Shown here one piece after another: positions 2,696 through 12,717 of a stretch of 12,717 bases of DNA (the stretch's first letter is position 1; every line of letters begins with the position of its first letter). A model generated the notes under the pieces. The model was not told the DNA's origin. It made no database searches and saw nothing but the letters and a program-made list of their open reading frames with translations. This DNA is from a virus. Taxonomy: Duplodnaviria; Heunggongvirae; Uroviricota; Caudoviricetes. The DNA lies in IMG/VR virus record IMGVR_UViG_2778261593_000004, positions 1 to 12,717 of that record; one strand, written 5' to 3'. The translations under genes were made by a program, and so were the position numbers.

Positions 2696-3517
2696 TTAAG
2701 ACACCTTCCTGAAAATTACTAGCGGTGTCATACCATAGGAAGTTTCGCTCCTCCCAATCATTCCACGAATACCTTCAAGCATATAGTCTATTGTGCCTCT
2801 GATTTCGTCAGAAGGAAATATTGACTCTGAAACTGTCTCGTCACTTATATCCGGGAGCGCATCTATAACACCGATGACATACCATTCACCAGGTATTCTG
2901 GAACCATACTTTAATGCAAGATTTCCCACATCTAAAGCTAAATCATCAGCCTTGACCGACATCCAGAATATATTTTCTTGATCGTCAAGAAGCTCTATCT
3001 GTGTAGAGAACGGGAGCAAAGAAAACATGTCAGCAGCCATTTTAGCATGATAAATTTCTTCTTGAATATCTTTTTTCTGAGCTGGTGATTTAGTCTGCTT
3101 TAGTTCTTTTTGTTTTGCATCTTTATATATAGGGAGAACATCATGAGCCATTTTCACATCAAATAATTTGATATGCCCTTTTACCATCACCAGACTTCCA
3201 ATTTCTGCATTTTCTAAGCTCGTTGCCACCAAGCCTTGTTCGTGCAACTTATCAAAAAAATTTAATGGTAAAGACCATGATGAGTCAAAATGCCGCTCTT
3301 GCGTTTTTGCAAAAGAATCCCCCGCATTTTTCCTGGCATTAAATAATGAAACGCCACCTTTAAGTTCATTTAATGAATGCTCAGAACTGGACGAGATTTG
3401 TTTTACAGCATTCAATACTCCTGATGGAAATAATTGCGCAGTGAAGTAACCTACGCGCTCTTTGTCAAGATAAAGGTAATCAAATAGTGAATCTACGGCT
3501 TGACAATCTTGATCCAT
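2696..3517 (-). CDS. Hypothetical protein, 273 aa, unknown function (AT-rich cargo gene)
   Basis: Long ORF. Start chosen at ATG 3517 (MDQDCQAVDS...) because GAGGAG lies 7 nt upstream; the track's upstream ATGATG at 3586 has no SD. No transmembrane stretch or recognisable catalytic motif seen. Visibly lower GC than flanking phage genes. Confidence 0.7.
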   Translation of the reverse strand: MDQDCQAVDSLFDYLYLDKERVGYFTAQLFPSGVLNAVKQISSSSEHSLNELKGGVSLFNARKNAGDSFAKTQERHFDSSWSLPLNFFDKLHEQGLVATSLENAEIGSLVMVKGHIKLFDVKMAHDVLPIYKDAKQKELKQTKSPAQKKDIQEEIYHAKMAADMFSLLPFSTQIELLDDQENIFWMSVKADDLALDVGNLALKYGSRIPGEWYVIGVIDALPDISDETVSESIFPSDEIRGTIDYMLEGIRGMIGRSETSYGMTPLVIFRKVS

Positions 3518-3799: not shown

Positions 3800-3955
3800 T
3801 TACTCCTCAGGTTCGTAAGCTGTGAAGACAGCGACCTCCGTCTGGCCGGTTCGGATTCGTACCTCACAGAGGTCTTTCCTCGTTACCAGTGCCGTCGCTA
3901 TGACGGTTAAACAGATGACGATCAGGGCGATTAACATCGCCTTTTGCTGCTTCAT
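3800..3955 (-). CDS. hok: Hok-family type I toxin (HokD/RelF-like), 51 aa
   Basis: Translation MKQQKAMLIALIVICLTVIATALVTRKDLCEVRIRTGQTEVAVFTAYEPEE is an essentially exact Hok-family sequence. Below the ORF-track length cut-off, so found by manual translation. Confidence 0.9.
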   Translation of the reverse strand: MKQQKAMLIALIVICLTVIATALVTRKDLCEVRIRTGQTEVAVFTAYEPEE

Positions 3956-4011
3956 AGCCTGCTTCTCCTTGACCTTTCGGTCCGTAAGAGGCTAATCTCT
4001 ATGTGTCGCAT
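3952..4011 (-). CDS. Short leader ORF (19 codons) translationally coupled to hok (mok-like)
   Basis: ATG at 4011..4009, MRHIEISLLRTERSRRSRL, TGA stop overlapping the hok ATG (ATGA). Hok loci normally carry an upstream overlapping reading frame (mok) that controls hok translation. Confidence 0.4.
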   Translation of the reverse strand: MRHIEISLLRTERSRRSRL

Positions 4012-4075
4012 AGATATGGCCTCAGATTAATGTTAAGCGTCTTGCCGGACGCCGAATGTTAACTGGGGCTTTTCT
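3969..4075 (+). ncRNA. Candidate Sok-like antisense RNA with its promoter (boundaries approximate)
   Basis: Plus-strand TTGACC (3969-3974), 18-bp spacer, TAATCT (3993-3998), giving a transcript antisense to the hok leader/mok-like start; downstream nested inverted repeats (4033-4062) and ctatctgcc/ggcagatag (4073-4109). The 3' end is not defined by a clean terminator. Confidence 0.3.
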
Positions 4076-4511
4076 CTATCTGCCTTTTGGTGTTCATGCC
4101 TGAGGCAGATAGCCTCAAGCACCCGCAGCAATTCTAACTATCCAATAGATCAATGCCAACTTCTTTTCCTGCAACATCTCTCAACATAAGTGACCAAAAT
4201 TCACCCAATCAGCACAAAAGAAACATTTAAAGCGTGAATGCTACCGAACGTTCATTTCAATTACATCGTTTTGATTTTTAACAGTTTTCACCTCAACAAA
4301 TCAAATGGCATTAGCATTCATCATGGAAGAAAGACTGATAAAAATGATCATTTTCAATGACTTATGATCACACCGGGTATTGCCAAGTCATTCCTTTTAC
4401 GCCAGGATACCCACAAGTAAGTAGTCGAGGAGAGTTTGCCAATTTTTGCGATATAAATTTCAATGTCCGAAGAACCATTAATTGTTAATTGATTCTGTAT
4501 AAGGTTTTAAC

Positions 4512-9476: not shown

Positions 9477-9999
9477 ACGAACCCCTGGCAGACATTTGTT
9501 TATCTGCAAAGTAATATTGGTATTGCTGACGATACGCACGCTTGAAAGCAATGGCTTTTTCTATAAGCTCGTCAGTCTCACGTTCCACAACAGCTGGATC
9601 CGCAAAAAGCAGCCCGGACTCCACCACATCGCCATATTCTTTGTTTAACCCGGCGATCATGTACGTAATGCTTTTTCCGTCAGTAATTTCACAATACAAC
9701 CTGAAATCGCTGATCCGGATAGCCTCCATAATTGCCGGAATCAGCGCCGTGAATTTTTCACGCTTATCCCTGGTGTCGATAGCTTTCCAGCGTTCGAATA
9801 TCTTCACCCTGTTAACGCCCAGCGCCCGTTGATCAACCGCGCCATCATCAAACGTGACGCGATGAACATCGATGTTCGGGCGTTCTTTCAGAGCCCAGAA
9901 TGCTTCCGTGATTAATATCGTCGCCTGCTCCTGCGTCATTCCTGGTCGGCATACCCAGGCATCCAGAGCCTCGCGAGCCTGCTCAGGAGTGAATATCAT
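9448..9999 (-). CDS. YdaT-like (CII-analogue) prophage regulator, 183 aa
   Basis: Segment ERWKAIDTRDKREKFTALIPAIMEAIRISDFRLYC resembles the YdaT core as I recall it (REKIQKLIPAILAIL...RLC); sits directly downstream of the Cro-like gene, as ydaS-ydaT in Rac. Confidence 0.6.
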   Translation of the reverse strand: MIFTPEQAREALDAWVCRPGMTQEQATILITEAFWALKERPNIDVHRVTFDDGAVDQRALGVNRVKIFERWKAIDTRDKREKFTALIPAIMEAIRISDFRLYCEITDGKSITYMIAGLNKEYGDVVESGLLFADPAVVERETDELIEKAIAFKRAYRQQYQYYFADKQMSARGSYEYRCTTMG

Positions 10000-10249
10000 T
10001 GTTCACCGCCAGTGATTCATTCGCTGTAGGCTTAATCCTGCCAATAGTCAAAACCGCATCAGCAGAAAATAATCCGTTTGATGCCAGAGCAATTTTTTCA
10101 GCGTAATTTGTTTCGCCTGTATATTCTGTGCGCGGTAATTTTCCATTATTCATCCATTTGTAGATTGCTCTTTGGCTGACACCGCAAACATCGGCTACAA
10201 CAGAAACGCGAACTGCTTTGATTACATCTGCAAGTGTTGTATGGCTCAT
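9983..10249 (-). CDS. Cro-like HTH regulator (YdaS/DicC-like), 88 aa
   Basis: Start at ATG 10249 (MSHTTLADVIKAVRVSVVADVCGVSQRAIYKWMNNGKLP) with a GAGGGTG SD; HTH-like VSQRAIYKW; divergent from the DicA-like repressor. Confidence 0.65.
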   Translation of the reverse strand: MSHTTLADVIKAVRVSVVADVCGVSQRAIYKWMNNGKLPRTEYTGETNYAEKIALASNGLFSADAVLTIGRIKPTANESLAVNNDIHS

Positions 10250-10328: not shown

Positions 10329-10748
10329 ATGGTTCATGAAGATGAAGCGCGTAAAGAGTTCGCCAGCAGGCTTGCGCTAGCCTGTGATAATGCTGGTTTT
10401 GAACAACACGGAAGGCAGGCAGAAATTGCCCGTCGAATGAAGCTAACACCCAAAGCGGTTAGTAAATGGTTTAATGGAGAGACAATTCCCCGTCGAGAGA
10501 AACTGAAAGAATTGGCAGCACTTATCGGAACAACACCAACTTACCTTCTGGGGGAGGACACTGAAGAAAGCGGAAGCCTGCGTTTCTATCAGGAGTTAAG
10601 TCCGAGGCAAAAAATCATCATTGAACTTCTTGATGAACTCCCTGACAGTGAAACTGATGAACTTTTAAAAACTCTTGAGGAGAAAAAACAGAAGTACAAC
10701 GCAATTTATGAAGAATTAGCGCGAAAGAAAAAACAAAAAGCCTCCTGA
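10329..10748 (+). CDS. dicA: DicA-like XRE-family repressor, 139 aa
   Basis: HTH region (EIARRMKLTPKAVSKWFNGETIPRREKLKELAALIG); C-terminal LSPRQKIIIELLDELPDSETDELLKTLEEKK resembles K-12 DicA (LSPKELELLELFNALPESEQDTQLAEM, from memory). Supported by a downstream DicF-like RNA and DicB-like start. Confidence 0.65.
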   Translation: MVHEDEARKEFASRLALACDNAGFEQHGRQAEIARRMKLTPKAVSKWFNGETIPRREKLKELAALIGTTPTYLLGEDTEESGSLRFYQELSPRQKIIIELLDELPDSETDELLKTLEEKKQKYNAIYEELARKKKQKAS

Positions 10749-11050: not shown

Positions 11051-11257
11051 ATGCAGAAACGAGAACCCGTCATCATCGCGCCAGACTATACCGATGATGA
11101 ACTTTATGAGTGGATGCGCGGGAAGATACGCGCCATTAATGACCTGAAGCAGGCCACTGATCACAAAGAGCGCCTCTCTGAAACACTGGCGTCAGTGACG
11201 CAGGATATTACCGCTCTGGCAAAAAGCGCGGCATTAAACGTTTCGCGAGTGATTTAA
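11051..11257 (+). CDS. Small prophage protein, 68 aa (YdfA/B/C-region analogue by position)
   Basis: ATG 11051 (MQKREPVIIAPDYTDDELYEWMRG...) with GAGGAA 5 nt upstream; first gene after the dicA-like repressor on the same strand. Confidence 0.5.
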   Translation: MQKREPVIIAPDYTDDELYEWMRGKIRAINDLKQATDHKERLSETLASVTQDITALAKSAALNVSRVI

Positions 11258-11281
11258 AACCACCGACTGATGAGGTTGACT

Positions 11282-11920
11282 ATGGAATTTAAAGATTTAC
11301 CAATTTCAATACAGGAAATGGCCGCTGATGTGATTCGCTCGCAACTGGCGCGGAACCCAATGATATTAGTAGATAAACTGTTCATCAGAAATTTATCAAA
11401 TCATGTCCGCAATTCCTTTACCGGACTGTATTCATATTCGTTCACAAACAATCATTGTGTAGAAAATAAAGCAAAACTCATTGCAGAAACGACAGCGCAA
11501 AACATCAACACGAAACCAACGGAAGAAGAAATTGATCAGTTTGCTCATGATGCTGGTTTAAAAAACAAGGAAGAAAAATCGCCATATGCGGGAAACATGT
11601 TTGTTTATGACAACCTTATCCGAATTCGTGGCGAAATTCCGACTGAATACCTGGCAAAAATTCACCAGGCATTACTTAAAAATCTGGAAACGGAAGTATT
11701 TGATGGCAACACCAACGGCTCCTTCGTGGTGTCAGCTCTCGCAAAAGAGTGGGATAAAGATAATCGCTGGAATGTTGCTACATGGTTATTCAGCAACAAA
11801 GCTTCCGCCCTGGAAGCTGCGGCGTGTATTTGCGACCTGCTAAGGACAGACCGCAAATACAACCTGGATGTGTATAGCTATATTTATGCTGAACACTATC
11901 CGCTATGGATTAACTGGTAA
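11282..11920 (+). CDS. Hypothetical protein, 212 aa, unknown function (AT-rich cargo gene)
   Basis: ATG 11282 (MEFKDLPISIQEMAADVIRSQL...) with GAGG 6 nt upstream; visibly AT-rich; no recognisable motif. Confidence 0.6.
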   Translation: MEFKDLPISIQEMAADVIRSQLARNPMILVDKLFIRNLSNHVRNSFTGLYSYSFTNNHCVENKAKLIAETTAQNINTKPTEEEIDQFAHDAGLKNKEEKSPYAGNMFVYDNLIRIRGEIPTEYLAKIHQALLKNLETEVFDGNTNGSFVVSALAKEWDKDNRWNVATWLFSNKASALEAAACICDLLRTDRKYNLDVYSYIYAEHYPLWINW

Positions 11921-12130
11921 TTACAAAGCTGTACCAGCAGGGCCACGACGACCAGCACCACGATTGTAATCAATGATGCCATTATAAAGCGCATTATTTA
12001 ATTTATCGTCGAATGCCGATTCTGTGAGTCCTAGCTCTGAATGAGTTTTTAATAACCCTGATTGCCTGAGTTGATTAACCAGGCATTCAATCTGTTTTTC
12101 AATAAGCGGATGTATTGGCTTGTTTGGCAT
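11921..12130 (-). CDS. Small protein, 69 aa, unknown function
   Basis: ATG 12130 (MPNKPIHPLIEKQIECLVNQLRQSGLL...) with GGAGGA 4 nt upstream; its stop codon directly abuts the stop of the convergent 212-aa gene (TAATTA). Confidence 0.45.
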   Translation of the reverse strand: MPNKPIHPLIEKQIECLVNQLRQSGLLKTHSELGLTESAFDDKLNNALYNGIIDYNRGAGRRGPAGTAL

Positions 12131-12458
12131 TTTATCCTCCATTGAGGTTACTGGTTGAGAATGGAGACCACACGTGACAGCGTGTTGTCGTGCGCCGGAC
12201 ACGGATAAGAATCCGGCACTGACAGTTTACTGAAAGGATATATCCCTGAAAAGTCAGGGCATAACGCGAAAGCGCACGGCGAAGTTATTTCTCCCTCTGT
12301 TGCGTGCCACCGGCATCTTCGACCGTGCGCTTCCGGTTGTGGCAATCCGCGAAATGGCGCGGCGGTAAGTATGGCGAGGCTATCCTTTCCTCGAGATAAC
12401 ACCGGGTTGTCAGGTTGACCATACGCCTGAGTGACAACCCCGCTGCAACAACCCATGT

Positions 12459-12511
12459 TGATTACCTTTTGGCGACATCAGTTTCATTGCTGGCTGATGT
12501 CCGCCCTTTTT
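12459..12511 (+). ncRNA. dicF: DicF-like small RNA with intrinsic terminator (boundaries approximate)
   Basis: ttttggcgacatcagtttcattgctggctgatgtccgccctttttaaag: an 11-bp stem with one bulge (12471-12505) followed by 5 T; pattern resembles K-12 DicF as I recall it (uuuggcgguaucaguuuu...cugccgcccuuuuu); lies between dicA and a dicB-like start, as in Qin. Confidence 0.45.
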
Positions 12512-12672
12512 AAAGTGAATTTTGTGATGCGGTGAATGCGGCTCAGCGCACGCGGAACAGTTAAAACAAGCAACCTTATGGGTGAAATACTCCGGCGTTA
12601 ATTGTTAACTGGTTAACGTCACCTGGAGGCACCAGGCACCGCATCACAAAATTCATTGTTGAGGACGCGATA

Positions 12673-12717
12673 ATGGAAAAGTTATCATACAATGCCAGTA
12701 CGTCTGAACTTCGTTTC
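12673..12717 (+). CDS. dicB: Partial CDS (first 15 codons), DicB-like cell-division inhibitor
   Basis: ATG 12673 with GAGGA 7 nt upstream; MEKLSYNASTSELRF compares with K-12 DicB MKTLLPNVNTSEGCF (memory); continues beyond the window end. Confidence 0.45.
   Translation, partial: MEKLSYNASTSELRF

Follow-up and report, generated by a model that had tools for sequence, protein, structure and literature searches.

A putative DicF/KilS-family small RNA allele at the dicF position of an Stx2e-type lambdoid prophage

Introduction

The question raised by this locus is whether a terminator hairpin located at the dicF position of a lambdoid prophage should be read as DicF, the inhibitor of ftsZ translation, or as another member of a wider family. 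DicF is among the textbook examples of a prophage sRNA, and what the host gains from it is a matter of continuing debate. The stretch of DNA analysed here (the window) comprises 12,717 nucleotides of a Caudoviricetes record (IMGVR_UViG_2778261593_000004), and a sequence-only reading of it had proposed a DicF-like sRNA with an intrinsic terminator at 12455-12511 (AUGUUGAUUACCUUUUGGCGACAUCAGUUUCAUUGCUGGCUGAUGUCCGCCCUUUUU), upstream of a dicB-like gene, the resemblance implying inhibition of ftsZ. DicF uses its 3' region to bind the ftsZ ribosome-binding site and its 5' end to bind xylR; the 5' end supplies the seed for both xylR and pykA (PMC5069750). Its 3' end is generated by termination or by RNase III and its 5' end by RNase E, with the RNase III route yielding a 72-nt species (PMC9438474). 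A second relevant RNA is KilS, annotated as a 98-nt sRNA (b4833) of the K-12 Rac prophage. It was first predicted on the basis of Hfq RIL-seq and then confirmed on a Northern blot, with yncL given as its partner (Bar et al. 2021, PMC8175672); that paper makes no mention of DicF.

Results

Prophage context and gene order

Over its full 12.7 kb, the window was 99.4% identical to a prophage of E. coli RM10740, a strain from feral pig, in which stx2e is situated approximately 2-3 kb outside the left end of the window. The host element is an Stx2e-type lambdoid prophage with the hairpin at its dicF position. On the + strand, the dicA-like gene is followed by the ydfC homologue, an ORF of 216 aa, a non-coding block, the hairpin element, a structured leader, and the start of the dicB-like gene (Table 1). 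The DicA-like repressor shares 29% identity with DicA over 112 aa and is divergent from a YdaT-like gene and from the Cro/DicC-like gene, whose homologous position in RM10740 is annotated as an HTH regulator. The dicB gene is annotated at the homologous position in both RM10740 and ETEC1732. The synteny claimed in the sequence-only reading was confirmed, with the dicA-like gene and the YdfC homologue upstream of the element and the dicB-like ATG (12673) downstream. The element lies where DicF is expected, flanked by ydfC and dicB within the dicB operon of a lambdoid immunity region, and, like DicF of K-12 (b1574, Qin cryptic prophage, RF00039), it is preceded by ydfC and a non-coding block and followed by a leader and dicB. 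No ydfA or ydfB was found in the window.

Other genes in the window were recorded as well. The 216-aa ORF (11270-11920, + strand) is intact in the window and lacks a Pfam match, while its counterpart in RM10740 and ETEC1732 is annotated as a partial pseudogene with the N-terminus missing. Relative to K-12, the ydfC-to-dicF stretch is split by a hypothetical gene of 69 aa encoded on the opposite strand (11921-12130). Further away, a sok antitoxin RNA (3953-4124, - strand; Rfam RF01794, 107.5 bits) marks a hok/sok locus of the hokD type; the annotation of RM10740 has hokD at the corresponding site.

When compared to the Qin prophage of K-12, the window showed 90.8% identity in the proximal upstream 129 nt (12321-12449) and 89.1% in the U-tract and leader, whereas the tail and hairpin together reached 56.5% (35% in the tail, with a 10-nt deletion, and 74% in the hairpin). 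In this alignment, the element is the part of the region most diverged from Qin. Its Qin-like flanks (89-91%), combined with a tail and hairpin of about 56% identity, point to a positional orthologue of dicF.

Table 1. Features of the dicA-dicB region of the window (coordinates refer to the window; nt, nucleotides).
Feature	Position	Strand	Remark
Cro/DicC-like HTH regulator, divergent	9983-10249	-	weak HTH_17 match
DicA-like HTH repressor, immunity region	10329-10748	+	Pfam HTH_3, E = 4.9e-10
ydfC homologue	11051-11257	+	63% identity to K-12 YdfC
Conserved non-coding block, Qin-like	12186-12449	+	82% identity to K-12 overall
Variable 5' tail, W type (AACCCAUGUUGAUUACCUUUU)	12450-12470	+	in place of the K-12 DicF seed UUUCUGGUGACGUUU
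Predicted sRNA body (5' tail, terminator hairpin, U5)	12455-12511	+	W tail / B loop allele
Terminator hairpin	12471-12505	+	13 pairs, bulged C12501
Hairpin loop	12484-12491	+	8 nt, UCAUUGCU
U-tract (T5), intrinsic terminator	12507-12511	+	identical in K-12 DicF and KilS
21-bp perfect helix, 5' strand	12514-12534	+	starts 3 nt past the U-tract; identical to K-12
STnc100-like structured domain (dicB leader), enclosed by the helix	12518-12650	+	Rfam RF02076
21-bp helix, 3' strand	12637-12657	+	ends 4 nt ahead of the dicB Shine-Dalgarno
dicB-like gene, first 15 codons (MEKLSYNASTSELRF)	12673-12717	+	start aligns with K-12 dicB; ended by the window edge

The terminator hairpin

The bulged stem and U-tract described in the sequence-only reading were present. 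The arms of the hairpin extend over 12471-12483 and 12492-12505 and form 11 Watson-Crick and two G-U pairs around the bulged C12501, ahead of T5. The minimum free energy was -18.9 kcal/mol, compared to -9.45 +/- 2.3 for 200 dinucleotide shuffles, none of which was as stable (z = -4.11). A terminator scan recovered the element as 10 pairs between 12474 and 12501 followed by CGCCCTTTTT; the number of terminator-like sites in the region (3, against 2.5 +/- 1.5 expected) showed no excess over chance. The three DicF-like motifs that had been named, i.e., TTTGGCG (12468-12474), ATCAGTTT (12477-12484), and CCGCCC (12501-12506), were also found; pairwise alignment showed them unchanged in K-12 DicF, and most alleles at the dicF locus have them. 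A12475 is private to the window allele; all related alleles carry G at this position, and the substitution converts a G-U or G-C pair into an A-U pair.

Flanking structured RNA

The non-coding block upstream of the tail (about 265 nt) was moderately structured (fold z = -2.5), contained a 9-bp stem-loop at approximately 12404-12440, directly 5' of the tail, and was better conserved than the sRNA element. It yielded no Rfam match and is presumed to be the precursor and processing context of the element. Within it, the segment 12291-12320 was only about 40% identical to K-12 and displaces the stretch GTTAAATTT common to Qin and Rac, which is a candidate promoter stretch of KilS and Qin. No sigma-70-like promoter was found on the + strand between 10866 and 12659, so production of the RNA would depend on the operon transcript.

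Downstream, the 21-bp helix encloses the leader and ends ahead of the dicB Shine-Dalgarno GAGGA (12662-12666); the fold of 12455-12675, including this helix, had a z of -5.3. The predicted structure therefore comprises the 3' Rho-independent hairpin, U-tract, and downstream duplex that characterise DicF. By analogy with DicF, the helix is a candidate RNase III site for a longer, 72-nt-type species, and its position fits, the 53 nt of DicF plus about 19 nt giving 72 nt. Since the helix is identical in sequence to that of K-12 and its position fits the RNase III route, both 3'-end routes are plausibly kept.

The leader matched STnc100 (RF02076) at 40.4 bits (E = 5e-6), the match spanning positions 21-154 of the 206-position model; with a score short of the gathering value of 47, the domain is related but sub-threshold. 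The K-12 Qin dicF-dicB spacer likewise scored under the STnc100 gathering score. The leader hairpin motif TCACCNGGAGGCACCNGGCAC (12621-12641) was seen in at least 120 stretches of species-representative Enterobacterales genomes (loci L129-L248), with Kosakonia, Citrobacter, Salmonella, Pantoea, Rahnella, Erwinia, and Klebsiella as hosts among the matches listed, and Pantoea carries tandem copies of it on a plasmid. The STnc100-like architecture consists of GGTGAATCCCCC..GCGG.GGGG, a variable part, and TCACCGGGAGGCACCCGGCACC, and often precedes a terminator (sRNA-like) or an ORF. Among the matches listed, a DicF-like hairpin ahead of the TCACCNGGAGGCACCNGGCAC motif occurred in Escherichia and Shigella only. 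STnc100 has been tied to the EPEC sRNA PasD (2026 preprint).

Family membership

At curated thresholds, the Rfam search of the window returned no DicF, and the sok RNA was the only match to pass. Under relaxed thresholds, the DicF model matched 12456-12506 with 26.4 bits (E = 0.0014 for 618 nt searched and 0.03 for the whole window), compared to 76.7 bits for K-12 DicF, 39.1 bits for KilS, and a gathering score of 48 bits. This covariance-model search, which had been proposed as a check, gave a borderline answer; the B, C, D, E, F, and Shigella-type loci tested all stayed below the cut-off too. A further covariance model, R1, was built from the DicF (A), KilS (G), D, and H alleles, with every B-loop sequence left out. 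R1 matched 12455-12511 with 39.6 bits and an E-value of about 4.5e-9, which is rough owing to a shortened calibration, and its next match scored 9.8 bits. Defining the DicF/KilS superfamily in this analysis as the alleles at the dicF/kilS position, membership of the window element is supported, since a model lacking the B-loop allele finds it as a single strong match. Its classification as DicF in the sense of Rfam is not supported. The original designation as a DicF-like sRNA therefore holds for a homologue at the dicF position with an intrinsic terminator and fails for the Rfam gathering score and for the K-12 seed UUUCUGGUGAC. RNAalifold on eight alleles gave one compensatory pair, on an alignment in which MAFFT misaligns the loops and independent alleles are too few to argue from covariation.

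Comparison with DicF and KilS

The window element and DicF have in common the hairpin base GGCG/CCGCC, the motif AUCAGUUU, U5, and the downstream AAAGUGAAUUUUGUGAUG helix, and the window RNA is presumably made as DicF is, its 3' end set by termination or RNase III cleavage and its 5' end by RNase E. In contrast, the DicF 5' seed is missing in the window through the 10-nt deletion and substitutions, the stem of DicF has an internal loop where that of the window is continuous, and the loop and upper stem differ. The suggestion that the 5' part is unlike K-12 DicF and that specificity may differ was borne out as to sequence, the seed being absent and the tail 35% identical.

KilS (locus L416, 2906-3003) is followed by the downstream element also present in the window and by kilR. 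Its stem is that of the window bar one base (GGCG[G/A]CAUCAG / CUGAUGUCCGCC), and both elements are followed by U5, the downstream helix, and an STnc100-like leader and are placed before a division-inhibitor gene. The window tail (CAUGUUGAUUACC) appears to grade into the KilS tail (CAUUGCUGUGUGUAGUCC) through forms such as CAUUGUUGUUUGUAGUC, a series (S, S2, W) arranged by eye rather than by formal alignment. Several features separate the two. The KilS loop has about 19 nt (UUUUUUUCUUGAAGUUCGG) compared to 8 nt in the window; upstream, the window resembles Qin and has about 100 nt more than KilS separating GTGCGCTTCCGG from the tail; the stretch proposed as the KilS promoter is replaced; and the gene downstream is kilR in one case and dicB-like in the other. 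Of the features by which KilS is recognised (same hairpin, tail seed, and loop, upstream of kilR), the stem alone is common. As a separate observation, the B loop (12484-12493) holds CAUUGCUG, the first 8 nt of the KilS tail (KilS nt 32-39), a match with a chance of about 1e-3 that is rough and stands before correction for post-hoc choice; it may be a seed copied into the loop or a coincidence.

KilS and DicF (locus L001, 4383-4435) themselves appear to be homologous alleles of one locus, sharing the stem base, U5, the downstream helix and leader, and the place before a division-inhibitor gene. By sequence comparison, the window element is homologous to DicF and closer to KilS. Given a stem identical to that of KilS bar one base and a tail alignable to it by eye, the label 'DicF/KilS-family sRNA of unknown target' fits better than 'DicF that inhibits ftsZ'.

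The allele series

Loci were gathered by their flanking sequence and not by the element; the sampling is biased by the search patterns chosen and covers the matches listed. Within this set, a common GGCGG/CCGCC stem was combined with no fewer than three types of 5' tail and six types of loop. The scaffold common to the alleles consists of the stem, the U-tract, and the downstream helix; UUGGCGG...CCGCC(C)UUUUU followed by AAAGUGAAUUUUGUG was present in all of them and AUCAGUUU in most. Their folding energies ranged from -10.7 to -22.6 kcal/mol. Loop class A is that of K-12 DicF, B is UUU[C/A]AUUGCUGG, C is GGGUAUCCG-U-rich-UGAUACCC, D is UGUUUGCCCAUGAAC, F is a short hairpin, G is the KilS loop, and H is a further class. 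The tails fall into classes K (UUUCUGGUGAC), W (CAUGUUGA...ACCUUU), and S (CAUUGCUGUGUG...). K was combined with A, D, and F; W with B and C; and S with B, G, and H, so that KilS is an S tail with a G loop and the window a W tail with a B loop. The stem of the window is that of KilS and of types D and G except for the G>A at 12475. Among the unnamed types, C shares the W tail, flanks, stem base, and terminator with the window; D and H share its stem, flanks, and terminator; and F shares its flanks, stem base, and terminator; the loops differ in each case.

Allele counts were obtained by megablast over 5,426 complete E. coli genomes, a search that registers close variants only. Allele A was found in 3,969 genomes, G/KilS in 1,430, D in 290 (including O157:H7), C in 132, and W/B in at least 91. 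Carriers of the W/B allele include E. coli SE11 (NC_011415, 1781412-1781465) and ETEC1732 (NZ_CP122823, about 3001860). The loop classes are discrete, each recurring across many loci, with few intermediate forms noticed. The absence of RefSeq annotation was dropped as a sign of novelty, as PGAP genomes leave the canonical DicF allele without a feature as well.

Different apical hairpins occur in prophages that otherwise share 99.4% identity. RM10740 equals the window up to UUUGGCG, continues with a C-like apical hairpin, and then matches it again across the terminator and the leader's first 90 nt. Over the mosaic patch (window 12470-12717, locus L249 15470-15760), the hairpin, the leader at 12572-12600, and the dicB start differ, the first 15 dicB codons being MEKLSYNASTSELRF in the window and METLLPNVNTSEGCF in RM10740. 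ETEC1732 has the B hairpin but differs from the window in a leader segment and in the dicB 5' end. These mosaics indicate that the apical hairpin is exchanged as a module between near-identical prophages. In Shigella flexneri (locus L151, 3100-3430), a B-like hairpin with an S tail is situated upstream of an STnc100-like element, with isrK (61.5 bits) and a C4 antisense RNA (75.7 bits) in place of dicB, a context that places the hairpin module in an antirepressor-type control region as well.

Target pairing predictions

Pairing was computed by cofolding and by an accessibility-aware scan. Full-length RNAduplex runs without intramolecular structure returned long, meaningless duplexes and were set aside. 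K-12 DicF nt 26-53 paired with ftsZ positions -29 to -1 with a hybridisation energy of -26.7 kcal/mol, which opening costs reduce to a total of -6.4 kcal/mol. In the prediction for the ftsZ leader that the sequence-only reading had suggested, this 28-nt duplex collapses for the window allele to a best contact of 5 bp with a total of -2.8 kcal/mol. The cofold ddG values of K-12 DicF were -16.3 for ftsZ, -15.4 for xylR, -15.4 for manX, and -9.5 for pykA, compared to -6.3, -3.9, -7.4, and -2.1, respectively, for the window allele. Its value for ftsZ was worse than that of 55 of 60 mononucleotide shuffles, a weak control in that the shuffles break the hairpin and overestimate random binding.

The CUCCG anti-Shine-Dalgarno block is absent from the window loop, and the hairpin is more stable than that of DicF (-18.9 vs. 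-15.9 kcal/mol), so a seed in the loop or 3' arm would be less accessible. The leftover complements to ftsZ, AGUUUC against GAAACU (-8 to -3) and UGUC(C)GCC against GGCGACA (-28 to -22), gave no favourable interaction overall. Neither the complementarity to the ftsZ site nor the 5' seed pairing with xylR and pykA by which DicF is recognised was found. With the seed and CUCCG lost, the hairpin stronger, and the remaining blocks unfavourable, repression of ftsZ is unlikely, and the ftsZ inhibition implied at the outset was not supported. As both tail and loop are unlike those of DicF, regulation of ftsZ, xylR, pykA, or manX is not expected. These models suggest that the window allele probably regulates something other than ftsZ.

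The best predicted KilS-yncL duplex involved KilS nt 32-47 (-18.4 kcal/mol), i.e., the tail just 5' of the hairpin, which suggests that the tail acts as a seed in the DicF/KilS family. The window tail has diverged at the positions of this predicted pairing, and the duplex is not kept.

Complements to the RNA within the window and RM10740 were limited to a 12-mer and an 11-mer, both near chance. The 12-mer (AAAGGTAATCAA, 3472-3483, + strand) is complementary to the 5' tail and antisense to annotated genes, with about 0.1 such matches expected by chance; the 11-mer complement is inside the dicA-like gene at 10649. GCCAGCAATG complements the B loop and is located downstream in loci of every class. 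Specificity through cis-antisense pairing has precedents in the c4 RNAs of P1/P7 and in plasmid copy-control RNAs. Co-variation of the loop class with a cis target was rejected, as the longest complements within +/-4 kb were no longer for a locus's own class.

Discussion

Taken together, the element is best described as a new, uncharacterised member of a known sRNA family. The explanation we favour, with moderate confidence, is that it is a DicF/KilS-family allele in the early-left (dicB) operon whose RNA acts in trans on altered targets and whose hairpin also serves in cis as a terminator. The trans action is inferred from DicF and KilS. By analogy with these RNAs, transcription would start at the repressor-controlled operon promoter and stop at the intrinsic terminator, or read through and be followed by an RNase III cut in the adjacent helix. 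RNase E would trim the 5' side within the unpaired segment that separates the hairpin from the upstream stem-loop; the site GA↓UUA at 12460/12461, which suits RNase E preference, is a guess. The product would be an Hfq-binding RNA of about 50-57 nt that pairs with host or phage mRNAs through the 5' tail (UUGAUUACCUUUU) and/or apical loop (UUUCAUUGCUGG), while in cis the hairpin would limit read-through into dicB. KilS, a non-DicF allele of the same locus, is a verified sRNA, which is consistent with this mechanism; the U-tail of just 5 U and the 69-aa opposite-strand gene in the path of the transcript are points against it.

The main rival explanation assigns the element a role in cis only, as a terminator or attenuator with an RNase III context that sets polarity on dicB and exo/xis/int, and no role in trans. 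The conserved parts are those that a terminator needs (GC-rich stem base, U5, and the following helix), conservation is lowest in the loop and tail, none of the four known DicF targets keeps its predicted pairing, and no convincing target or cis partner was found in the window, in RM10740, or within +/-4 kb of the loci; the variation of loop and tail could accordingly reflect a lack of constraint instead of new specificities. However, experiments support both DicF and KilS as sRNAs that associate with Hfq and have mRNA partners (PMC5069750, PMC8175672), and the loop classes are discrete and recurrent, some of them very common in E. coli. This pattern is unlike the free drift of a terminator loop, although recent spread by recombination could also produce it. 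On balance, a purely cis-acting element is a serious contender that we consider rather unlikely.

A functional equivalent of DicF that still blocks division through ftsZ translation is far less probable. It would account for the same position, the dicB-like division inhibitor downstream, the sub-threshold Rfam DicF match, the conserved AUCAGUUU, whose AGUUUC is a perfect 6-mer complement to ftsZ, and a 3' arm able to pair with GGCGACA. Against it, the central block covering the ftsZ Shine-Dalgarno is missing, the accessible contact and the cofold energy are far weaker than those of K-12 DicF, the cofold energy ranking poorly among shuffles, and the hairpin that would need to open is the stronger of the two. 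A chance hairpin with a chance resemblance to DicF, to which only the unexceptional count of terminator-like sites in the region lends itself, is practically ruled out by positional orthology with flanks about 90% identical, the shuffles, model R1, and the recurrence of the W/B allele in at least 91 E. coli genomes and dozens of viral contigs.

Returning to the trans-acting family allele, a broader and more tentative proposal, which we rate as possible but doubtful, is that the dicF/kilS position is a recombining seed-cassette locus at which each tail/loop combination is an sRNA with its own host targets. The constant scaffold would comprise the upstream processing block, the GGCGG/CCGCC stem base, U5, the RNase III helix, and the STnc100-like leader, into which interchangeable 5' tails (at least three classes) and apical loops (at least six classes) would be inserted. 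DicF (ftsZ and others) and KilS (yncL) would then represent two sampled specificities, and W/B a third regulator.

Conclusions

DicF and the recently found KilS are apparently alleles of one locus, which occurs in many discrete tail/loop combinations and whose non-DicF alleles, in the loci tested, were missed by the Rfam DicF cut-off. An allele carried by Stx2e-type prophages of pig and wildlife E. coli appears to be without the determinants of ftsZ pairing, a caution that synteny alone is insufficient to infer an 'ftsZ inhibitor'. Should the non-DicF alleles prove inert, the element would be just an internal terminator of the operon, which is an ordinary finding. If the alleles are functional, the locus would provide a natural experiment in which horizontally acquired sRNAs change their targets by module exchange.
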